From: a virus
Strand: one strand, 5' to 3'
Length of the DNA stretch: 64,000 nucleotides
Virus record (IMG/VR): IMGVR_UViG_3300031669_000016
Location: 11,175-75,174 of that record
In this document: positions 10,006 through 55,222 of the stretch, one piece after another
How positions within the stretch are numbered: position 1 is the stretch's first letter
How the letters are laid out: each line of letters begins with the position of its first letter
The notes under the pieces: generated by a model
The model's database searches: none
What the model was told of the DNA's origin: nothing
Seen by the model: only the letters and a program-made list of their open reading frames with translations
Translations under genes and position numbers: made by a program

Positions 10006-13000
10006 CTGCCAAGCGCTCAATATTCCTATTTGCTCGGAATAGGCTTGGACCCGGTCACCGTCCAAAGGCTGCAGGCACAGCTAATCCAGCTCGCCCAGCA
10101 GGCCTCGAAAGTCGGTACGGCCCAGGCGCGTACCACTGTGGGTGTCACCCCACAGCAAACCACCGCAACCCAACGCGCCACACGTCAGGCCGCGGCTGGC
10201 TTTGCTACTACAAGTAAGCAGGCTACGCAGGCAACCCAAGCAGTCAAAGGCTTCGGTGGCGCGATGCAAGAGGCGGGTCGCGGAATCTCTCATGCCGCGG
10301 GCAAGGTCCTTCTGTGGAGCGTGGCAACAGGTGCGATCTACGGTTCACTGCAAGCCCTCCGCGGTGCTGTCGAGACCATCAACGACGTGGACTTCGCGTT
10401 GACTGGTTTGAGGAAGGTATACGCCGGAAACATCGCTGATCTCGGTCAGATGAAGAGGGCCGCGGTCGATATGGCGATGGCTTATGGTTCTGGAATCTCC
10501 GACGTCCTGAATGGTATGCGCGACTGGGCTCGGCAGGGCTACCGTGCTCGTGATGTAATCGAGTTGACAAGGGTTAGCTTGCTTGCCCAGAACATCGCCG
10601 AGATGGATGCTGTACAAGCAACCCGCTACTTGACGGCGGCCCTGAATCAGTTTGATCTTGAGGCCACTCAAGCAATTACTGTCCTCGACACGTGGAACGA
10701 ACTAAGCAACCGCTATGCCGCAACGACGCAGGACATCGCGGAAGGCACTGCCCGCCTCGGCCGCACCGCCCACGATGCTGGCCTCTCGATCCAAGAAGCC
10801 AGCGCGATGGTCGCCGTTCTAGTCGAGCAGACGAAGCGATCGGGCCAAGAAATCGGAACGGCGATGCGTACCGTTCTGACCTACGCCTATCGCGAGCGCA
10901 ACGTCAAAGAGCTTGAGAAGATCGGCATTTATGTTCGCCGTGAGCGGGGCGAACTGCTGGCTATGATGGACGTTTTGACGCAGCTATCTGTCAAGTGGGA
11001 GGTACTTAGCGATACCCAGCGTCAGGCCATTGCTGAAGCCTTCGGCGTGCGGCGGGTCACCGAGTTCCGGACCCTAATCCAGGGCATGCCCGCCATCCTT
11101 GAGGCGACGCGCATCGCGTATGACAGCCAAGGCTCCGCGTTGCGGGAGAACATCATCTTTCTGGATTCCCTGCAGGTCCGTTATGGGCGGTTGAAGGCCG
11201 CGCTTCAAGCACTCGCGGTCGGAACGGAAACGCAGGATACGTTGAAGAGCATTGTCAGCGTACTCACCAGCCTCGTTACCGTTGTCGATAAGGTTGGCAT
11301 CAAGACCATCTTCGCTGCGGGCGCTCTGGTTCTGATCACGCGCTACACCCAAGCCTACTCGGCCGCGCTGATTACGTTCCATACCCAAATGGTTTTGGGC
11401 ACACAAGCAGTAGCGGCAGGTACGGTGACAATGGCGGCATGGCAACTCCAGGTCAATGCTGCAACACTTGCCCTGCAGCGATTCTGGGTCACACTTGGTC
11501 CTGTTGGTTGGGCCGTGGCCGCTGTTGGTGTTGCTTTCGGGACTTGGAAGGCCATTGATGCTTATGTTTATCGCCATGAGCGTGCGGCACGTGGACTGGA
11601 GCGACAGGCCGAGGACATTGAGCAAACAACCCTGGAGGCGCTTCGCCGCGAAGAAGCTGGCTACCGCGCCCAGGTCGACGCGTTGACGCGGCGTGCCGAA
11701 CTGATCCAATCCTTACGTGATCAGTACGAAGCGGTTGGAAAGAGTACTGATAAGGCCGCGGACAAGCAAAAGCAGATGGCGAAGATCCTCGAACTGCTTC
11801 AAGCCGCAACGGGTGATGCCAGCTTAGCTTTACGCGACGGCTTAGCTCCCGCATTTGGCATCGTCGAGCGCGCCGCACAGAGCGCTCTTATCGGCATTAC
11901 CGATGCGATGGACAAGATGCGGGCCAGTATTGCCCAAACACTGCGGGGACAAATCCAGGGTATTAGGGGCGATATCGAACTGCGCAGAGATGCCGTCGAT
12001 AACTTTGCGAAGGCCGCGGAGAGAGAACGCAAGACGGTCCTTGGCATGTTCGACACTATTGCTAAGGGGCAGAAGCTGTATGTTGACCCCTTTGCCGGTG
12101 TGGATCGAAAAGATGCCGAGGCTGTGTTGTCTCGGACACATGAGATGAAGGATCTGTCCGGCCTGCAGACCGGTGTTACCAACAGGCTCAGCAATGCGGT
12201 GGGTGAGTACAACGTTGCGGCGGGTCGTCGAATCGAGTTGGAGGGTACACTCAAGACCACTGAACAAGCCCTACTCGAACTCGAAATGGAACGCGCCGAT
12301 CTTCCCAAAAGGATCGTATCGGATCCGGATCCGCTCGGCACTAAGAAAGCTGGTAAGAGCCTCCGCAGTTATCAGAATCAGGTCCGATCCGTTATCAATC
12401 TGGTACGCGAACTCCAACAGGCGATGCGGCGTATGGGCGCGGAAGGTCTCGGGCCGTGGTATCAAGAAATCCAACGCTTCGACCAGACTTGGGAGGATAT
12501 GCAGGACCGCGCGCTGATGGCGTTGGACCAGATCAATGAAACCTTGTCCGAAGATATCCCGGCACAGGCGCGCAAAGCCCTGCTTGGGGCACGTGACGAA
12601 CTGGTCGGCGTGCTCAACACCTTCGCTACTCAATATCCCCTAGAGTTCCAGCGCGCATGGGAACGTGCACTGCATATCATCCGCGGCGGTGCTGAGGCAT
12701 TACAGTTCCAGCTCCGTGAGTACCGCGAAGAGTTGGAGAAGACCCTAGCCGATTGGGTTCGGCGCGGTAAGATCACGCCCGACCAGGCAACGGAGATGCA
12801 ACGGCTCGCCACGCTGACCAAGCAATTCGAGGTCATCTCTAAGAGTGCCGATCTGCTGGAACGGCAGTACCAGTTCGAACGACAAATCACAGAACTCGAA
12901 ATGGGGAAGGGTTGGGAGTTCTCGCGTGAACGCGCCGAGATGTTGCGGCGTGATGTGGAGCAGGCCGCCGGCGCGTTGACCGCGTTACTACTGGCTGCTC

Positions 13001-14730
13001 GGGCCGAGGGCGCTGTCGGTGAGACCATCGGGGAGATTATAACGGAAATGCGCGCAAAGGCGTCTGATCTCGCCGATGCCTTACTTACCGCCGAACAGAA
13101 GCTCGTTGGTGCAAATGCAGCGGTGCTGGACTTCCGAGACGGCATTGTTGGGCTTGGTCAAGACCTCGAACTCTTCCTACTCGACCGACTCGGCGATGTT
13201 ACCGGGAAGATCAAGTACCTACAAGACATCTTCCAGCGCGCCCTAGACCTCAAAGATGTCAACGCTCAGATCGCGGCGTTCCGTAGCTTAGTCGAGCTGC
13301 ACCAAGAGCTTGTGGAGGTACAGTACGACTACTTGAAATTGCAGGCCGACACGGACACGTTCCAGCAGTTCGCGTTGTTACAGCAGCGTTACGGCGCGAT
13401 GACCGACCCGCGCGAGCGCATCCGGCTCTGGAAAGAGATGCAGGACATCCAACGCGACTACGCTGACTGGCAACGCGAGGTTGCCGCGGGTATGGAGGAC
13501 TACGGCCTTGACCCCGTGGCGAGGACGACGCGTGAGATCGAGCGGCTGTGGGAGTTACTCGAAGAGTTTCCCCTAACAACAGAAGAGGGGCGGGGGTATT
13601 TCGACGAACTCCTCAGCCGCGCCACGCAGTTTGGTGATGCCTGGCGCGCCGAGGTGAAGCAGCTCAGTAGTAGCTTTAGCGATGCGATGGCCGATGCTAT
13701 CCAAGGCACTGGCGATCTAACCGAAGCAATTGCTGGCATTTTCGAGGACATCGGACGGGAATGGCTGAGGACCTACATTAGCCGTCAGATGGAGGGCGTG
13801 TTCGAGGAGTTGAACCGCGCCGCTTACCGCGCCCGTGGGGAACCTGTTGATAGAGCGACTGACATTATGGGCCGCCTCCGCGAGATCAAACTACCCGAGA
13901 AGCCAGAGCTTCCTGCTCTGGAAGGCCTCGACCTGCAATTGAGTAGCCTTGGTCAGACCTGTTTAGACGCGGCGACAAAAATGGAGCAGTCATTGGTCGC
14001 CATAGATGCGGACACTGCCGCTATCATCGAGCACACCCGCGCACTGGTCGAGTCGGCGCAGCAGATCGGTGCTACGGGTGGTGGTGGGGCCGACTTCAAT
14101 AGCTTGCTCCTTCAAGCAGCGGCTGGAGGCGGGGGTGAGGGTGGAGGCATTCCAGGAGGTGGGGATTACGGAGTGAAGCCGTGGCAAAAGTCGGTGATCG
14201 GAGCCGCTGGACTTTACAGTGCATACGAAACTGGATCACCAATGGCAGGTATGGTTGGTGGTGCCTTAGCATTTGGCCCCTGGGGCGCTGTGGCCGGCCT
14301 TGGTCTTGGAATACTGGGCAAGCGTAAGAAGAAAAAGGAGGCGGATGCCCAGCAGGCCGCGTTCGCACAGAAATTGATGGCGAAATACGGCGCTTTCTGG
14401 TCCCCGCCTGATGTGATGTGGAGTACTACTCCATTCCTTTCCGCAATGGACTATCCTGCCTACGCCTCTTACCGCGGCTACGCCGCACCGAAACCGTCCG
14501 CGGCATATCCTACCGTATCTGCGGCATGGACCGCGCCGACGCGCTACCCCACTGTGACGGCTCCACAATTCGATCTGCGCGAACTGGCACGACGCATCCA
14601 GCCAATCACGGTGAACCTACACGGCACGGGCTATACGGCGCGTGATGCGCGCCAGATCGCCGTTTCGATCCAACGCGAGCAGGCCCGGCTCTACGAGCGC
14701 GAACAAAAAGCCGGGGTTAGGGTGAGGTGA
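10006..14730 (+). CDS. Tape measure protein (TP901-type core); start may be CTG 10006 or TTG 10030
   Basis: About 1570 aa, Ala-rich and helical; LDTWNELSNRYA and RSGQEIGTAMRT motifs; hydrophobic segments. Confidence 0.92.
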   Translation: MPSAQYSYLLGIGLDPVTVQRLQAQLIQLAQQASKVGTAQARTTVGVTPQQTTATQRATRQAAAGFATTSKQATQATQAVKGFGGAMQEAGRGISHAAGKVLLWSVATGAIYGSLQALRGAVETINDVDFALTGLRKVYAGNIADLGQMKRAAVDMAMAYGSGISDVLNGMRDWARQGYRARDVIELTRVSLLAQNIAEMDAVQATRYLTAALNQFDLEATQAITVLDTWNELSNRYAATTQDIAEGTARLGRTAHDAGLSIQEASAMVAVLVEQTKRSGQEIGTAMRTVLTYAYRERNVKELEKIGIYVRRERGELLAMMDVLTQLSVKWEVLSDTQRQAIAEAFGVRRVTEFRTLIQGMPAILEATRIAYDSQGSALRENIIFLDSLQVRYGRLKAALQALAVGTETQDTLKSIVSVLTSLVTVVDKVGIKTIFAAGALVLITRYTQAYSAALITFHTQMVLGTQAVAAGTVTMAAWQLQVNAATLALQRFWVTLGPVGWAVAAVGVAFGTWKAIDAYVYRHERAARGLERQAEDIEQTTLEALRREEAGYRAQVDALTRRAELIQSLRDQYEAVGKSTDKAADKQKQMAKILELLQAATGDASLALRDGLAPAFGIVERAAQSALIGITDAMDKMRASIAQTLRGQIQGIRGDIELRRDAVDNFAKAAERERKTVLGMFDTIAKGQKLYVDPFAGVDRKDAEAVLSRTHEMKDLSGLQTGVTNRLSNAVGEYNVAAGRRIELEGTLKTTEQALLELEMERADLPKRIVSDPDPLGTKKAGKSLRSYQNQVRSVINLVRELQQAMRRMGAEGLGPWYQEIQRFDQTWEDMQDRALMALDQINETLSEDIPAQARKALLGARDELVGVLNTFATQYPLEFQRAWERALHIIRGGAEALQFQLREYREELEKTLADWVRRGKITPDQATEMQRLATLTKQFEVISKSADLLERQYQFERQITELEMGKGWEFSRERAEMLRRDVEQAAGALTALLLAARAEGAVGETIGEIITEMRAKASDLADALLTAEQKLVGANAAVLDFRDGIVGLGQDLELFLLDRLGDVTGKIKYLQDIFQRALDLKDVNAQIAAFRSLVELHQELVEVQYDYLKLQADTDTFQQFALLQQRYGAMTDPRERIRLWKEMQDIQRDYADWQREVAAGMEDYGLDPVARTTREIERLWELLEEFPLTTEEGRGYFDELLSRATQFGDAWRAEVKQLSSSFSDAMADAIQGTGDLTEAIAGIFEDIGREWLRTYISRQMEGVFEELNRAAYRARGEPVDRATDIMGRLREIKLPEKPELPALEGLDLQLSSLGQTCLDAATKMEQSLVAIDADTAAIIEHTRALVESAQQIGATGGGGADFNSLLLQAAAGGGGEGGGIPGGGDYGVKPWQKSVIGAAGLYSAYETGSPMAGMVGGALAFGPWGAVAGLGLGILGKRKKKKEADAQQAAFAQKLMAKYGAFWSPPDVMWSTTPFLSAMDYPAYASYRGYAAPKPSAAYPTVSAAWTAPTRYPTVTAPQFDLRELARRIQPITVNLHGTGYTARDARQIAVSIQREQARLYEREQKAGVRVR

Positions 14731-22199: not shown

Positions 22200-22684
22200 G
22201 GACTCGTCCTGATATCTCCTCGTCCATCTCCCGCCCCAGACATGCCCGCGCCATAACGCTCAGTTGTGGGCGGCCTCGTCGCCTCCTGGCCACGGGGTCG
22301 CGGTGGATGCGAGGGACCTCTTGCAGATAGGACACCTCCCGCCCAGGTGACCCTCGACGAGCGGGGTGCTACAGGCACTACACATATAGGGGGCTCCGGC
22401 GTGCTCCGGCCTCTCCCACACAGCAACCCACTTCGGGGAGTCGGGGAGGCGGTCAACGACATAGTGCCCCGCCCTCGTCACTCCCATTAGCGCGGCGAGT
22501 TCGCCTGGCGTCTCGGGGTCATGGGGGAAGAATGTCATGCCCCACTCCTCCGCACCGCATTGCCGTATCTGCAACGCTGGACGGTGGCTAGCGCGTACCT
22601 CCCTCACCTCCACCTCTGACACCCGCAGGCCCTCCTCGGGCGGATACTTACTCTCTTCACACAACATATCAGTCTTGTCATCCA

Positions 22685-24420: not shown

Positions 24421-25407
24421 TCATAACGCTTTCTGATAGGCATCGTACAGCAGTTTCCCGGCTCGCTTCCATGTAAAGTTATCTCGGATATGCCGCGCCA
24501 GCGACTCGTTGCGACGGGGCCATCGCGACATCGCCACTTCCCAAGCTGTGCGCGTCGCAACTACATGAGTCTCGGGGTAACCGGCACGTCCGTAGTGGGC
24601 GTAGTCGCCGAGGTATTCTTGTATCGCTGGAATGTCTGTGGTCACGACCTCACAACCAGTGATGCCAGCTTCGAGGTTGGTCAGACCGGGATTATCGTAG
24701 TGTGTGGGTAGGACGCTTACTGCCGCACCGGCGAACCAGTGCATTATCTCGCTGTGAGGACGCGCGCCCATAAGATGGATCCAGGGTCGCCCCTCCGCGA
24801 TCTGTTCACAACGCGCATAGACCGGATGGCGGCAATCGCCGATGCAGTAGATTGGGAACTTCAGATCTGCGTCAACCATGGCCTGAAGGAACTTATCCTG
24901 TGCCTTCCTGTCCTCGTAGCGCGCGGCGAGGATGACATAGGGTTCGTGTGGTACGACCCCATAGTCGGGTTGTGCTAAGTACCAATCCGCGGGCGCGCCT
25001 GTCGGAATCCAGATGCTCTTCGCCTCTAACACATCGGCAGGCAGGCCGAGATCATAGGCGAGTTCGAATGGTTCGCGATGGATGTTGATGAAGAGGAAAC
25101 GGGCCTGCAACGCGATCTCGGCACAGCGTTCACGTGAAATGAAAAAGATGCCAGGACTGTGGATGGTCTGGATGACCAGCGGTACACCGCGTTCCTTAGC
25201 GATCTGAGCGGCTTGATCCGCTTCTTGTAGGATGATGTTGAAGGCGTGAACCAACTGGAACTGTTCTCGCCGCCAATCGACGTCGTGACAATGGATCACT
25301 TCAACATCGGGTGGGAGATGTTGCCGTAACATCTTCCGCTGCGTCTCATCGCCGCCCTGATGCGCCCCCTTCTCGTATGGAGTGCGGTTGACGGTCAGTA
25401 CCCTCAT
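24421..25407 (-). CDS. Glycosyltransferase, GT4
   Basis: GGDE, ARYEDRKAQ and DNPGLTNLEAG motifs. Confidence 0.85.
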   Translation of the reverse strand: MRVLTVNRTPYEKGAHQGGDETQRKMLRQHLPPDVEVIHCHDVDWRREQFQLVHAFNIILQEADQAAQIAKERGVPLVIQTIHSPGIFFISRERCAEIALQARFLFINIHREPFELAYDLGLPADVLEAKSIWIPTGAPADWYLAQPDYGVVPHEPYVILAARYEDRKAQDKFLQAMVDADLKFPIYCIGDCRHPVYARCEQIAEGRPWIHLMGARPHSEIMHWFAGAAVSVLPTHYDNPGLTNLEAGITGCEVVTTDIPAIQEYLGDYAHYGRAGYPETHVVATRTAWEVAMSRWPRRNESLARHIRDNFTWKRAGKLLYDAYQKAL

Positions 25408-26198
25408 ACCATTTCATCTGGCTGATCAAAGAATAGCTCAACAGTGCCCGTTCTTGGGTTCCTACATCCAACAGTCATACCGCGCCTATCCCCAGTCGCC
25501 AGAACTACGCGCTGATACTCCATTGGATCATTGGGTTGTCCGAATTGGCTCCGCCAATCCCAATATCGGAAGGCCACTTTTCCCGCGTCATTCAGATTTG
25601 CGTAGCTATAATCCGCTGGGACATTGCCCTCGTATAGTAGGTAGCGACTACTTTCTTTGGCCGAACACCCCGAATCGTTCATCCAGGAGGCTTTTAGACA
25701 GCCCCCCAACTTCCGACAATAACGGCGACGGGGTACCAGTACACCGCTGAGATACGCATCGATTGAACATGTGTAGCAACGCGGAAGTTTGTCCTTGCCG
25801 ATGGTGGCGGCAATCTGATATTCAATGCCCTTCCCATAGCCAAGACACCGCAGCACAGCATATGCAAGGGATGGTGAACGTGCCCTACCAGCCATGCAAT
25901 GAATCAGCAGTTTGTGTGTCTGTCCGCTCAGGGCACCCAATGCAAAGTCCAATGCCGACTCTAAGAGTTGGGGGGTCCATGGCATTCTATCATCTTCCAA
26001 GTTGATACGATGCAATCGAACGTTGTGTGTCCGCGCCCAAGAGACTTCGGCGTCTGGCCCATTCTCGTGGCATCTGTCATTGTCATGGAAGAACGCGATG
26101 ATATAGGTGAATCCTTCATGGACGAGGCGTTCCATATCGCTTTGGTGGCCGATACAGCCAGAGATCGCAAGTTGCTTTGTGAGTCGGATGATGTTCAT
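25404..26198 (-). CDS. Dual-specificity / PTP-like phosphatase with C-terminal extension
   Basis: HCMAGRARS (CX5R) motif. Confidence 0.85.
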   Translation of the reverse strand: MNIIRLTKQLAISGCIGHQSDMERLVHEGFTYIIAFFHDNDRCHENGPDAEVSWARTHNVRLHRINLEDDRMPWTPQLLESALDFALGALSGQTHKLLIHCMAGRARSPSLAYAVLRCLGYGKGIEYQIAATIGKDKLPRCYTCSIDAYLSGVLVPRRRYCRKLGGCLKASWMNDSGCSAKESSRYLLYEGNVPADYSYANLNDAGKVAFRYWDWRSQFGQPNDPMEYQRVVLATGDRRGMTVGCRNPRTGTVELFFDQPDEMV

Positions 26199-26251
26199 CT
26201 AGCCTCGGTGCGCGCCTTTCTCGAATGGTGGACGATTGATAGTCAGGACTT

Positions 26252-26836
26252 TCATGGCTGAAGACGCTCCCTTACACGTTGGAGTCGACGCCGCGTCTTA
26301 CGCAGCACACGGTACAAGGCGGGATCCTTGGTTATTTCCTCGCCTGCCAACAAGCGCCCCAACGCATCCAATTCGATGTCTGTGAGATGTGCCTTGATGA
26401 AGATCTCCTCCAAAGCTATCCTGTCCAGAACTACCCGTTCTGGATCTGCCGAGCCATCAACACACAAGGTTTCGCGCTGGTTCTCATCAAAGTCTTCTAG
26501 CGCCACGATCTGCGGGATGCGATCGGTGCGGCTGTCTCGAAAAACTGAGCTGGGTATTCGTATCAGGAAGGAGTGGCGGAGCCGCCATTTCTGTATCGCT
26601 CGTGTTGCAGTCTTTTTCAGATAGGCCCCTTGCTGTGCCATCGGTCGTGTTGTGTCCAGTCGGTTGCGCACCGCATCCATAATTGCTACGCGGCCCACCT
26701 GCGCGAGGTCTTCCTGTTTGTCCCGATCAGTTGTGAGTCTGCGTGCCTCGCGCTGCAATACCTTGTCGAAGCATGCCAGCCAGTAGTCCAGTACGGCGGG
26801 ATCGTTGGTGCCGCGCTGTTTCGACTGACCAGCCAA
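26252..26836 (-). CDS. Phage sigma70-family sigma factor
   Basis: EDLAQVGRVAIMDAV (region 2), IRIP, and C-terminal LTDIE...HTH-like region 4. Confidence 0.75.
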   Translation of the reverse strand: MAGQSKQRGTNDPAVLDYWLACFDKVLQREARRLTTDRDKQEDLAQVGRVAIMDAVRNRLDTTRPMAQQGAYLKKTATRAIQKWRLRHSFLIRIPSSVFRDSRTDRIPQIVALEDFDENQRETLCVDGSADPERVVLDRIALEEIFIKAHLTDIELDALGRLLAGEEITKDPALYRVLRKTRRRLQRVRERLQP

Positions 26837-27727
26837 TCAGAACTCACCGCCATCCTTCCACTTCGTGGTGTAGTCAGCACCTACGGTAACTGGCAGTCGG
26901 GCCTGCCAACGCCCCCGCCAACGGTTGTAGTTGAGCGTATACATCAACTGATCGTAGTTCAGAAGGCCGGCCGGGAGCTCTCTGATGCCCAACCCTTCGG
27001 CGACTGCACGCGCCTGATCACCATAGGCAGGTTGGGAACCGGCCGCACCTCCACCATGGTCGGCTCGAATCGGTAAGGTGCGGATGTGCCATCCCGCTGC
27101 CAACCACGCACAGCAGACCTCGCGGTCGTACCAGTGATGGAGGCCGGGATAGTCCTGATCGAGAAGAGTTGGGATTGTGTCGGTACGATAGAAGATGCCG
27201 CAGCCGTCAAGAGTAGCCGAAGCCATTCCGTCATCAGGTGTCCACGCGCCATGGATGCGCCATATCTCACCGGTTCCGTTGCCCCCCCATTGCTTACCAA
27301 TCAGACGGGAGTGGGTACCGATACGCCCCCCATCCGGTGCCAGTCCGAACGCACCGACTAAACCGGCAAGGCCCAGCTTCGCATCTTCCTCGAAGGCGTG
27401 TGCGATACAAAGATCCCATCCGACATCCCAGATCAAGACATCGTAATGGATGAAGGCGAGGATGTCGGCATCGGTGTAGTCGGCGGCGTATCGGATCGAC
27501 TCGAAAACGCCCAAGCTTTGATCCGGCACGAAGTAGCGGGTGTGTCCCCGGTCTTTCGTGATGGTGCCGCAAAGTCCGGCATGCGTTGTAATCACGTCGA
27601 GATCAGGGGTGTTGTCGACAACAATGATCTCGGTGCCCGAATCGGAAACTGTCCGCACGACCTGAGCAAGACATGCCTCAAGTAGGTCTGTTCGACCAAG
27701 TACTGGAATCGCGACTGCGACCCTCAT
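26837..27727 (-). CDS. Glycosyltransferase, GT2
   Basis: VAIPV, IIVVDN, FIHYDV, LDG and HWYD motifs. Confidence 0.85.
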   Translation of the reverse strand: MRVAVAIPVLGRTDLLEACLAQVVRTVSDSGTEIIVVDNTPDLDVITTHAGLCGTITKDRGHTRYFVPDQSLGVFESIRYAADYTDADILAFIHYDVLIWDVGWDLCIAHAFEEDAKLGLAGLVGAFGLAPDGGRIGTHSRLIGKQWGGNGTGEIWRIHGAWTPDDGMASATLDGCGIFYRTDTIPTLLDQDYPGLHHWYDREVCCAWLAAGWHIRTLPIRADHGGGAAGSQPAYGDQARAVAEGLGIRELPAGLLNYDQLMYTLNYNRWRGRWQARLPVTVGADYTTKWKDGGEF

Positions 27728-27766
27728 CTAGTCTCACCCCGATGTATCCCACCAACAATCTACTAT

Positions 27767-27795
27767 AGTATACCACAGTACCTACGGGTTGTCAT
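27767..27795 (-). promoter_or_regulatory. Sigma70 promoter for the GT2-sigma-phosphatase operon
   Basis: ATGACA-17bp-TATACT with an extended TG. Confidence 0.7.
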
Positions 27796-27848
27796 CTTTG
27801 CATGCCTAGATCCTACCCATAATCGAAGATTTGAGGCGAAAGCTTCGA

Positions 27849-28226
27849 CCAGCATCCTCGCGCGCGTAGGAGTGACTGTGTGGTATACCATAGTAATCGT
27901 GCCCTCGCGCGCGTGGAAGTAACCAACAGTAAGGCGGCAACGGAACCGGCGAGGTCGTCGTGCCCTCGCGCGCGTGGAGGTAACGTGTGGCGCGTTGGGT
28001 TTCTGTGGTTTGCTGGTCGTGCCCTCGCGCGCGTGGGAGTAACGGCCAATATCCTACCCATCTTAGGCAACACATCGTCGTGCCCTCGCGTGCGTGGAAA
28101 TAACCGCCCTTGTTTCGTCACTGAAGGCGGTCCAACCGTCGTGCCCTCGCGCGCGAGGGAGTAACCCGGAGGCCGCCAGGAAGAGGGGGAATCCAGAGGT
28201 CGTGCCCTCGCGCGCGAGGGAGTAAC
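27849..28226 (-). CRISPR. CRISPR array: 6 full and 1 degenerate 28-bp repeats (GTTACTCCCTCGCGCGCGAGGGCACGAC) with 6 spacers
   Basis: Repeats at 28199-28226, 28138-28165, 28077-28104, 28016-28043, 27957-27984, 27896-27923 and degenerate 27849-27876. Spacers are 33, 33, 33, 31, 33 and 19 bp. Repeat stem CCCTCG/CGAGGG. Degeneracy increases leftward, placing the leader next to the effector. Confidence 0.96.
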
Positions 28227-28361
28227 ACTGCCATACCTATCGTCCAAACATGTTTCATCACAATCTCTACCCTCCCTGCGCGCGCCCCGGCGAGGCCGGG
28301 GATTAGGATTTGATCCGCGACCAGCCTTCTCCGGGCTGGTGGCAGGTCGGGGACCCACGAC
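28227..28361 (-). ncRNA. Candidate tracrRNA / leader
   Basis: Anti-repeat segments at 28356-28361 and 28272-28285; hairpins at 28320-28340 and 28285-28301. Confidence 0.5.
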
Positions 28362-29725
28362 TATTTAGCCCCCACTCTCAACGCTCCAAAGGAGCGGTGG
28401 AACCCTCGATAGCCTCCTGATGTATTCCACTCCGCCTTGCGATAAAACGCCCGCCGAGCGATGTTCACAGCAGCTGCCTCGTCGGCGTCGAAATTGACAT
28501 CACAAGCCGGACAGTAGAGATCTTCACCTTCCCGTTTGGCATCCTCCCCACACCGAGGACAAATCAACGATGAGTAAGCAGCGAAGACCTCGCGTGGTGG
28601 TAACATACCAGCCATCCGCAACTTGTAGCTGAGGATATGACCCATCTTGGCATACTGGGAACGTATAAATGCGCCGCTTGTCTGTAGGTTGAGATCTTCC
28701 ATCACTACCAACGAGTGGTGCTCAACGGCCAACGCAACCAACGCATTGGCGATTGTGTGGAGCATCTGCTCTTGGTGTCGACGCTGCCAGGCTTGACGAC
28801 GCACATGCCGACCACGCCTCTGTGCGGCCTGGCGCTTCCGTCCCAATAGGATCTGTAGAGGACGCACGTCCCGACCAAGGCTCCCAACTCTGAGTGGTCG
28901 ACCCTCTTTGTCTATGATTGCGTATGCCGCCTGTTTGATGATGCCGCGATCAACTCCAAGATAGGTTTCCTCTTCACCCCGCTCCATACTCTCGACTTGG
29001 AACTCGAAGCTTATATGTAGGAAGTACTCGCCATCGCGCCGACAAAGGCAGGCACAGCGCGCCTTCCCTTTCGTGAGATATTCCTCTTCGTGCCATATCC
29101 CAAACGCGAGTGGGAAACGCAACCTTGTAGGCTTCTGTGGCTTCGGCTGCACCGGTAGTGATACCACCCACTTCTCGTTGTCGAGTCGTTCGAGAGCAAA
29201 ATCTCGGGCGCGTACATAGAGAAGCGGCCTGACAATCTCGCGCTCCTCACGTAGCAGACGGGATTGCCACGCTTGGTGGTCGAATGGATCACCAACCCAC
29301 TCAGCGGCCTCTGCAAGGGCCTTCTGGTACCCATCAGACTGATATCCGTACAGTGGTGAGGGGTACTGGGGTTCATCAGTTGCGTCCTCATGGTTCTTCC
29401 TATCTTCCCAGGCCTGTCGTAGTTTGCAGTACGAAACAAGGTTCGTTAGGATATCTGATACTAAGCCGTCATATAGAGCGCTTGGCAAATCCGTTGCTGA
29501 TAGCAAAGGACGGATTTCCTTCATTGCATTGAAGGGGCTGGGGAGTCTCTTACCATCGTGGAGATCACGAATCCACAGATCAGCCATGGGGCGGCAGCGC
29601 TCCAATGTATCTATATAGGCCTTGCTGTAACGGGCGAATACCTGGTCTAGGAGGGCACGTTTTCCAGTACCGGGATTGTATAGTTTGAGGATGGCTGTTT
29701 TCTGTACGATGACTGTGCACCTCAT
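28361..29725 (-). CDS. Compact type V CRISPR effector (TnpB/Cas12f-like RuvC nuclease)
   Basis: 454 aa; RuvC-I YLGVDRG, RuvC-II VVMEDL, Zn finger CPRC...CPAC, RuvC-III DADEAAAVNIA; adjacent to the array. Confidence 0.88.
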   Translation of the reverse strand: MRCTVIVQKTAILKLYNPGTGKRALLDQVFARYSKAYIDTLERCRPMADLWIRDLHDGKRLPSPFNAMKEIRPLLSATDLPSALYDGLVSDILTNLVSYCKLRQAWEDRKNHEDATDEPQYPSPLYGYQSDGYQKALAEAAEWVGDPFDHQAWQSRLLREEREIVRPLLYVRARDFALERLDNEKWVVSLPVQPKPQKPTRLRFPLAFGIWHEEEYLTKGKARCACLCRRDGEYFLHISFEFQVESMERGEEETYLGVDRGIIKQAAYAIIDKEGRPLRVGSLGRDVRPLQILLGRKRQAAQRRGRHVRRQAWQRRHQEQMLHTIANALVALAVEHHSLVVMEDLNLQTSGAFIRSQYAKMGHILSYKLRMAGMLPPREVFAAYSSLICPRCGEDAKREGEDLYCPACDVNFDADEAAAVNIARRAFYRKAEWNTSGGYRGFHRSFGALRVGAK

Positions 29726-53901: not shown

Positions 53902-53947
53902 CCTTCTAAGCAGCGGGTCGCAGGTTCGAATCCTGCCGGGCGTGCCA
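53902..53947 (+). mobile_element. attP core: 3' half of tRNA-Arg(TCT)
   Basis: CTTCTAA anticodon loop, GCAGG-TTCGAAT-CCTGC T-arm and CGGGCGTGCCA end; the 5' half is absent; adjacent to the integrase. Confidence 0.85.
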
Positions 53948-54049: not shown

Positions 54050-54073
54050 TTGCTACGCTGCCTAGGAGGATGT

Positions 54074-55222
54074 ATGCGAGCCGAACCGCGGCGCACCGCC
54101 GTTACGCTTGATGATCTCACCGCTTCGGTTGTGCCAGAACTGGTTGTCGAAACCACACCAAGTTGGGACCTGATGCTGGACCGTTACCTTCAGTGGCGAC
54201 AAGTCCAGGGCTTGTCGGCGGGGACGCGTCGGATCGATCAGCTCCAGTTGCAGCGGCTGGCTACATGGTGCGCCGCGCATGGCGTCACGACCGCTGTTAC
54301 ACGACAAGCTGTTGGTGACTACATCGTCGAACTTGATGGCAGGCTGTCCGCACGCGGCGTAAACATGGCGCTGCAGACCGCGCAGAGCTTTGGCGACTGG
54401 ATGATAGCGGAGGCGGTATGGACGACAAATCCGTTCCGTTCGATTCGGAAGCGACGCGAGCCGCGGCGCGGAGCGCCGGCAGGACTCAAACCACACGAAC
54501 TGTCCCAGCTGTTGGCCGCGCCAAACCGGGATAGGCCCGGTGGGCTGCGCGACTACCTCATGCTCTACATCGCCGCGTTCTGTGGACTGCGCATCGGCGA
54601 ACTTTGTTACCTCCGCGCCTCTGATCTGAATATGGCGGAGTGCTGGCTGCGTGTAGCCGCGGAAACCGCGAAGACCCGGACGGAGCGGCGGGTCTGGCTG
54701 CCACACAAAGAAGATAGACGCGGCCGCCACCTCCTTCCCGAGTTCGCCGAGCCGCTCGACCTCTGGCTTGCCTACCGTGCCCAGTATGATATCGACGATG
54801 ATGCTCCTCTCTTCGTCAACTGCTCTCGGCATCCGAACCACGCCGCGCCTGGTAGTGCGGTCGATACGGACGTGCTACGCATGAACCTGCGCCGCTATGC
54901 CACAAAGGCTGGACTCCCGCCGACGCGCTGCTCGCCCCACAAACTGAGACATACCGCGGGTTACCTGATGGGACGTGGCGGACTGACCGGACAGGTCATG
55001 CCACCGCAAGATATTATGCGTCAGCTCGGACATTGCACCCTCACCATGGCTATGCACTACGCTAAGGGCGACGAAGACGATGTACGCCGCAGCTTTGCCG
55101 CCGCTGCTGTTACCGGTACGGTCGACGTGCCGACGCGTCATCGGGTGCGTGTCGACTCGCCGCGTGGGATCCTGGCTCGACTTGAGCGCGCCGAGGAGCG
55201 CGTCGCCGAGCTGGAGCGGTAG
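54074..55222 (+). CDS. int: Tyrosine integrase
   Basis: GLRIGEL, AKT, HKLRH, LGH and HYA motifs; AGGAGG RBS; next to attP. Confidence 0.92.
   Translation: MRAEPRRTAVTLDDLTASVVPELVVETTPSWDLMLDRYLQWRQVQGLSAGTRRIDQLQLQRLATWCAAHGVTTAVTRQAVGDYIVELDGRLSARGVNMALQTAQSFGDWMIAEAVWTTNPFRSIRKRREPRRGAPAGLKPHELSQLLAAPNRDRPGGLRDYLMLYIAAFCGLRIGELCYLRASDLNMAECWLRVAAETAKTRTERRVWLPHKEDRRGRHLLPEFAEPLDLWLAYRAQYDIDDDAPLFVNCSRHPNHAAPGSAVDTDVLRMNLRRYATKAGLPPTRCSPHKLRHTAGYLMGRGGLTGQVMPPQDIMRQLGHCTLTMAMHYAKGDEDDVRRSFAAAAVTGTVDVPTRHRVRVDSPRGILARLERAEERVAELER

Follow-up and report, generated by a model that had tools for sequence, protein, structure and literature searches.

A spacer in the CRISPR array of a temperate soil phage matches the tape-measure gene of the same phage at 29 of 31 positions, and this match is far beyond chance. 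The reading that we favour, with moderate confidence, is that the phage carries a functional Cas12f-like system whose older spacers come from its own kin, and that this spacer, S2, has the nuclease cut those relatives that bear the exact allele while the phage itself is spared. In this reading, S2 would guide a tracrRNA-dependent, Cas12f-like system borne by the phage, and its source would have been the tape-measure gene either of a relative very close to this phage or of the phage's own ancestral lineage. Loaded with S2, the nuclease would cleave those incoming relatives whose allele matches all 31 nt, which would amount to heterotypic superinfection exclusion. The phage's own copy would be spared by the mismatches at positions 12 and 14, which lie mid-guide, and not by the loss of the flank on the PAM side.

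The phage and the analysed window

The window, that is the whole stretch of 64,000 nucleotides that was analysed, covers bases 11175-75174 of one linear IMG/VR virus record of 75,174 bp, about 81% complete, and this provenance bears out the label of phage that the first-pass annotation had given to the DNA. The record carries genes for a family A polymerase, DnaB, RecA, a primase, an integrase and the tape-measure protein, and the carrier is a mid-sized (75 kb) temperate soil phage. When 25 kb were compared with the phage collection by megablast, there was no match.

The 3' end of a tRNA, comprising the T-arm and the acceptor end, can be recognized at 53913-53947, upstream of the integrase gene (54050-55222, PHROG integrase), and no whole tRNA was found in the window by ARAGORN. 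This fragment, next to the integrase, is a likely attP core, and the phage therefore probably integrates into a tRNA gene. In one of the homologous arrays described below (locus L020), the first spacer, at 718-750, is also similar to a tRNA 3' end, with 19 of 20 positions identical to 53918-53937 of the window. This may recall the spacers of the Cas12r systems, discussed at the end of this text, that are directed against tRNA-integrating elements, and it may equally be a chance similarity between tRNA fragments.

The near-self spacer and its target

S2 is a 31-nt spacer on the minus strand, at 27985..28015, between the repeats at 27957-27984 and 28016-28043. The reverse complement of this interval is identical at 29/31 positions to 10153-10183 on the plus strand, a protospacer-like site that spans codons 42-52 of the tape-measure gene. 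At 10164 and 10166, which are positions 12 and 14 of the guide, S2 has an A in place of the C of the genome; these are the only two mismatches. When the ORF at 10030-14730 is read in frame, the first of them affects a third codon position and is synonymous (Thr), and the second affects a second codon position and exchanges Ala (genome) for Glu (S2) in a low-complexity stretch, so that the two differences between S2 and self look like allelic differences. The 5' flank of the self site on the plus strand reads ...ACCCCA, its last three bases, CCA, occupying 10150-10152. All of these elements, namely the match with both of its sequences, the position and coding effect of the mismatches and the flank, had been proposed beforehand, and they were recovered here without change. 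None of 100 dinucleotide shuffles of the window gave a match with three mismatches or fewer, and none of 400 shuffled S2 spacers rose above 24/31 anywhere in the 75-kb genome, so no shuffle equals the observed match. The similarity also extends by 2 nt (GT) into the next repeat, and the S2 unit measures 59 nt instead of 61; the original spacer may therefore have been 33 nt long, with a later slippage of GT.

The target gene (10030..14730, plus strand) encodes a protein of 1566 aa with a PhageMin_Tail domain (E 8e-31), which confirms its earlier designation as a tape measure. The protospacer, which encodes residues 42-51, lies upstream of this conserved domain, within an N-terminal segment of some 80 aa that is rich in Q, T and A. 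Among 5.8 billion protein clusters, the nearest tape-measure homologs, with 55% and 62% identity, do not have this segment in common with it. The perfect sequence is therefore possible only in very close kin, and S2 can discriminate only among near kin. The self allele (Ala) is present in all six of the contigs on record that encode this tape-measure protein.

The perfect target was sought in several ways. The exact 31-mer of S2 has 0 matches in IMG/VR, and a degenerate codon pattern that admits either allele has 0 matches in IMG/VR and the GTDB genomes. The protein search of the 5.8 billion clusters did not find the perfect protospacer either; residues 1-160 of the tape-measure protein retrieved nothing among shorter proteins, and its N-terminus, searched as a single protein in IMG/VR, has no relatives there. 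These negative results carry little weight because soil phages are sparsely sampled and because nearly identical records may be missing from what was searched.

The phage was found in the contigs of six soil metagenome runs (X1-X6), and the contigs of four of the six were aligned to it. Runs X4-X6 contain many pieces at 90-99% identity and below. In X2, a minor variant at about 12x depth accompanies the main one at about 100x, and its tape-measure pieces differ at about 15-17% of positions; one contig among the aligned soil runs diverges from the reference at 10011, immediately ahead of the tape-measure gene. Overall, the relatives in X4-X6 and the minor variant of X2 are about 83-99% identical to the phage and have diverged tape-measure segments, so close but distinct relatives share its habitat. 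Among the contigs listed, those that come nearest to the protospacer start at about 10266 (X2 minor variant) and at 10198 (X6), both just short of it; these contigs, and the best-supported variants listed, which include neither 10164 nor 10166, thus say nothing about the allele there.

Two other differences were seen in the contigs of X4-X6. At 22214-22683, 468 nt are replaced by 152 other letters, and at 25408-26257, 848 nt are absent, about the extent of a phosphatase-like gene (25404-26198). Judging from the alignments, both are variable cassettes between co-occurring relatives.

The nuclease and its candidate tracrRNA

The nuclease gene lies on the minus strand at 28361..29725, directly upstream of the array, and encodes a protein of 454 aa that we identified as Cas12f-like through Pfam (Cas12f1-like_TNB, RuvC_1) and Foldseek. 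The TNB domain (PF07282) scores 40.3 bits against a cut-off of 26.3, and the RuvC_1 match is below its cut-off. The RuvC residues D259, E343 and D413/D415 are all present, as are the four cysteines of a C4 zinc finger (C389, C392, C405 and C408), and all are invariant in 24 homologs. In a Foldseek search with the AlphaFold model of the protein (pLDDT 81), ranks 1-10 were AsCas12f, CnCas12f1 and OsCas12f (E 5e-18 to 1e-14, TM about 0.5), and the identity to the solved Cas12f enzymes is 13-17%. None of the curated family models passed, the protein reaching 68 bits for a cut-off of 450 with NCBIfam Cas12f2, 89 for 200 with Cas12e and 71 for 100 with TnpB. From the sequence and the model, the CRISPR system of the phage looks intact and functional.

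The region between the gene and the array (28227..28363, minus strand) contains a candidate tracrRNA together with the leader. A first anti-repeat (28361-28356) overlaps the stop codon of the nuclease and is the complement of the final 6 nt of the repeat. A conserved hairpin follows at about 28285-28301, which has a conserved loop and also covaries, and a second anti-repeat, at about 28265-28288, has its complement in the 5' half of the repeat. The evidence for this RNA comes from the comparison of 10 loci, in which the anti-repeat at the stop codon (6-7 nt) changes in step with the tail of the repeat, through three compensatory types. The repeats differ between loci, and they always end in ...GAC beside the spacer, with the most degenerate copy farthest from the gene. 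This covariation implies that both the RNA partner and the orientation of the guide are under selection. It fixes the orientation, with the crRNA on the minus strand and the repeat 5' of the spacer, so that the mismatches of S2 correspond to guide positions 12 and 14 and the flank on the PAM side is CCA. The crRNA orientation that the first-pass annotation had adopted is thus upheld by the order from gene to array, by the decay of the distal repeat and by the covarying anti-repeat. The predicted architecture is that of a tracrRNA-dependent Cas12f-type guide. We also compared the duplex energy of the intergenic RNA and the repeat (-34.9) with that obtained for shuffled repeats (mean -29.6, sd 3.2); as this difference is not significant in a GC-rich RNA, covariation is the only evidence that we used.

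Anatomy of the array

The array (27849..28226, minus strand) comprises six repeats of 28 nt and a degenerate terminal copy, which delimit five full spacers of 31-33 nt and a 19-nt stub. The two repeats proximal to the gene, R5 and R6, are identical, and R1-R4 all differ from them. Almost all of these changes fall in the 5' ten bases, the 3' 18 bases being constant, and the last copy is badly degenerate. The repeat R3 (28016..28043, minus strand), which would supply the crRNA handle for S2, has one change from the consensus, at position 10, and keeps the consensus sequence throughout its 3' 18 nt. At this same position 10 on the minus strand, R5 and R6 have a T, which gives a perfect 16-nt palindrome, and R1-R4 (27896-28226 for the set of repeats) have an A. 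The existence of two repeat subtypes may indicate that the array arose by recombination between two others.

Similarity to the phage's own genome above chance is confined to the spacers on the trailer side, that is S0 (16/19), S1 (24/33) and S2 (29/31). S1 (27924..27956, minus strand) is an older spacer that matches 27263-27295, in the adjacent glycosyltransferase gene, with a CCA flank; two of 400 shuffles reach its score of 24, six of its nine mismatches fall at third codon positions, and it contains an in-frame stop. The stub S0 (27877..27895, minus strand) matches 27761-27779, at a level attained by none of 400 shuffles. The three spacers on the leader side have no match in the phage genome, in the phage collection or in IMG/VR, where the first 22 nt of S3, S4 and S5 gave 0 matches each, and the whole array gave only chance-level matches (E at least 2) against 50,697 phage records.

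The site that resembles S0 overlaps the -10 element of a promoter-like match (27761-27795), and its flank is ATC, not CCA. This is the only sigma-70-like match in 27600-28500, and from its position it would drive the glycosyltransferase and sigma-factor genes downstream of the array.

The anatomy of the array bears on the first alternative, one that the first-pass annotation had not considered, according to which S2 is a relic, an old spacer in the decaying part of the array, whose differences from the target arose by neutral drift or by escape after acquisition and which has no present function. We regard this as the most serious competitor of the favoured reading, possible and clearly less probable than it. 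The units that resemble the phage's own genome are precisely those of the trailer side, where R1-R4 depart from the leader-side repeats and the last copy is badly degraded; the S2 unit is 2 nt short, the in-frame stop of S1 is what one expects of a drifting spacer, and the perfect target was found neither in IMG/VR nor in the GTDB genomes. Moreover, the two changes of S2 in 31 nt could be simple drift, since the neighbouring repeats in the trailer half, where S2 sits, are off consensus at 1-3 of 10 positions in their unconstrained 5' halves. However, the repeat ahead of S2 shows no change in its 3' 18 nt, the part that matters for function, several of the changes in the 5' halves are C-to-T and would keep G-U pairing with the second anti-repeat, and S2, at 29/31, is far better preserved than S1.

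Distribution and origin of the module

In metagenomes, homologs that are 55-61% identical to the nuclease are each followed by an array of their own in the same orientation, and so far the family is found mainly on short metagenome contigs. Searched as a single protein in IMG/VR, the nuclease has no relatives there. A tblastn against 50,697 phage records retrieved only phages of Salinibacter and Pseudoalteromonas, at 27% identity. In the former group, a full-length homolog that has escaped annotation (27% identity, 97% coverage) is present in 182 Salinibacter ruber phage genomes. One homolog stands apart by its context: at 3201-5160 of contig L006, a nuclease that is 57% identical, a tracr-like region and an array of seven repeats are found together, with no cas1 or cas2 within about 5 kb, and the neighbours are ordinary cellular genes (a TIM-barrel enzyme, a hydrolase, an AAA ATPase and an oxidoreductase). 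The nuclease family is therefore not restricted to phages.

This cellular homolog lends some substance to a second alternative, in which the module was captured from a cell or an element that had been immunised against this phage lineage, so that only mismatching spacers could be retained. The two repeat subtypes, which suggest a composite history, would also agree with such a capture, as would the lack of any match to Cas1 or Cas2 anywhere in the 75-kb record. Nevertheless, no homolog above 35% identity was found in 185,579 species genomes, and this scenario concerns only the origin of the module and is compatible with its present use against relatives. As an account of S2, we consider it unlikely.

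Proposed protection of the self copy

The trinucleotide CCA, whose frequency in the genome is 0.02, precedes both the S2 and the S1 sites, and this is suggestive of a PAM, with two sites of which one is weak. A BLAST comparison of the roughly 90 spacers of 14 homologous arrays with this genome and with all the retrieved homologous loci showed no cross-targeting, so that no PAM can be derived from them. CCN and CCD PAMs occur among Cas12f1 enzymes (PMC10090079). The loss of the PAM, which the first-pass annotation had offered as one means of self-protection, thus finds no support, given that the self site keeps CCA, that the S1 near-match shares it and that PAMs of this type exist. The mismatches at positions 12 and 14 are plausibly protective, by analogy with other enzymes. 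In an engineered Cas12f1, activity falls strongly when two neighbouring mismatches occur anywhere in positions 1-16 (PMC10090079), and the Cas12r of the Thermus 'Lalka' phages uses only the first 18 nt of the spacer (10.64898/2026.04.20.719267).

A third alternative, raised by the first-pass annotation as a non-cutting silencing of the late operon, is that the mismatched S2 lets the nuclease bind its own tape-measure gene without cutting it, and so damps transcription of the late operon. In its favour, one can note that the self site still has CCA, a candidate PAM, on its flank and that the 11 bases nearest to it match without exception, that the S2 guide would pair with the template strand, that the truncated S0 resembles a nearby promoter-like site and that no perfect external target was found. 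However, the site lies some 120 nt into an ORF of 4.7 kb, amid the genes of the structural operon and not at a promoter. Known natural CRISPR regulators have a short-seed design, which a match of 29/31 with two internal mismatches does not resemble. The nuclease also keeps all of its catalytic residues. Furthermore, no near-match to self was seen in the homologous arrays, on contigs that are mostly 2-3 kb long and thus too short to test the conservation of self-matching. Nothing speaks positively for silencing by a nuclease that is catalytically intact, and we hold it to be improbable. Slightly less credible still is a guide whose two mismatches are no historical accident, with a catalytically competent nuclease parked on the tape-measure gene and, through the truncated S0, on the promoter-like site nearby, as an RNA-guided brake on transcription of the late and neighbouring genes; this guide would also kill nearly identical competitors in which the perfect allele is present.

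We come back to the reading in which S2 would be directed at close relatives. The origin of the spacer in a related phage, and its part in competition between phages, had been put forward from the beginning. This proposal gains from a system that looks intact, from relatives that co-occur in the same soils, from a target that is specific to the lineage and from the precedent of other viruses (PMC6858448); what it lacks is a phage that carries the perfect protospacer. The absence of such a phage had been named in advance as the outcome that would tell against competition. None was found, which weakens the proposal; with soil phages so thinly sampled, it does so only to a small extent.

Related systems and significance

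The near-match of S2 fits, by analogy, a published pattern in which virus-borne arrays are aimed at close relatives. The mini-CRISPR arrays of the Sulfolobus portogloboviruses SPV1 and SPV2 contain spacers against close relatives, and the orthologous locus of the virus itself has point mutations that prevent self-targeting (PMC6858448); some of these spacers correspond to genes that are adjacent to the array in the relatives (PMC6858448, Medvedeva et al. 2019). The resemblance to the phage described here is manifold: a viral array without adaptation genes, a point-mutated self locus, variants that coexist and spacers against array-adjacent genes, as is the case of S1. The differences are also clear. 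SPV1 and SPV2 have one or two spacers and no effector gene, they rely on the type I machinery of the host, and their reciprocal perfect targeting has been shown (PMC6858448), whereas this phage has its own Cas12f-like effector and a candidate tracrRNA, and its perfect target was not found.

The closest analogue of the whole system is the Cas12r-CRISPR of the temperate Thermus 'Lalka' phages (bioRxiv 10.64898/2026.04.20.719267). Both are found in temperate phages of about 70-75 kb with a tRNA-type attachment site, a likely one in the present phage, and both associate a compact type V effector, without cas1 or cas2, with a short array of degenerate repeats of about 29 nt and spacers of 31-33 nt, in which new spacers stand beside the gene. 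A role in conflicts between mobile elements has been proposed for Cas12r as well. However, Cas12r has 564 aa, no tracrRNA and an ARG PAM, and its spacers are directed against integrative elements and not against its own kin, while the nuclease described here has 454 aa and a covarying anti-repeat that argues for a tracrRNA. No Thermus phage was matched in the tblastn of the 50,697 phage records, a release that may lack the Lalka genomes.

At the level of the enzyme, the comparison is with the type V-F Cas12f1 nucleases (AsCas12f, CnCas12f1, OsCas12f1 and RhCas12f1), which are alike in size and in fold, in the combination of RuvC with a zinc-finger TNB and in the use, predicted here, of a tracrRNA with anti-repeat segments; C-rich 5' PAMs are possible among them, to be compared with the CCA flank. 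This nuclease differs from them by its low identity (13-17%), by a score of 68 bits for a cut-off of 450 and by being borne by a phage without cas1, cas2 or cas4. The CRISPR systems of huge phages also lack acquisition genes, have compact arrays (median of six repeats) and include new V-F variants (10.1101/572362), and some of their spacers target structural genes of other phages (10.1101/572362, Al-Shayeb et al.). The present system is like them in its lack of acquisition genes, its compact array and its V-F-like effector; it differs in that the carrier is a mid-sized phage of 75 kb and that the only identifiable target is a near-match to the phage itself.

The biological surprise is moderate, because viral arrays directed against kin, in which point mutations spare the virus itself, have already been described. 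With this locus, the short list of viruses equipped with a complete CRISPR interference module would nonetheless gain a temperate soil phage of medium size, together with a clade, unnamed until now, of tracrRNA-dependent, Cas12f-like nucleases of about 450 aa, a clade that may in itself merit its own report. Finally, a natural pair of self and non-self sequences, one with two mismatches and one perfect, behind the same flank would make both the mismatch tolerance and the PAM of these nucleases directly testable.
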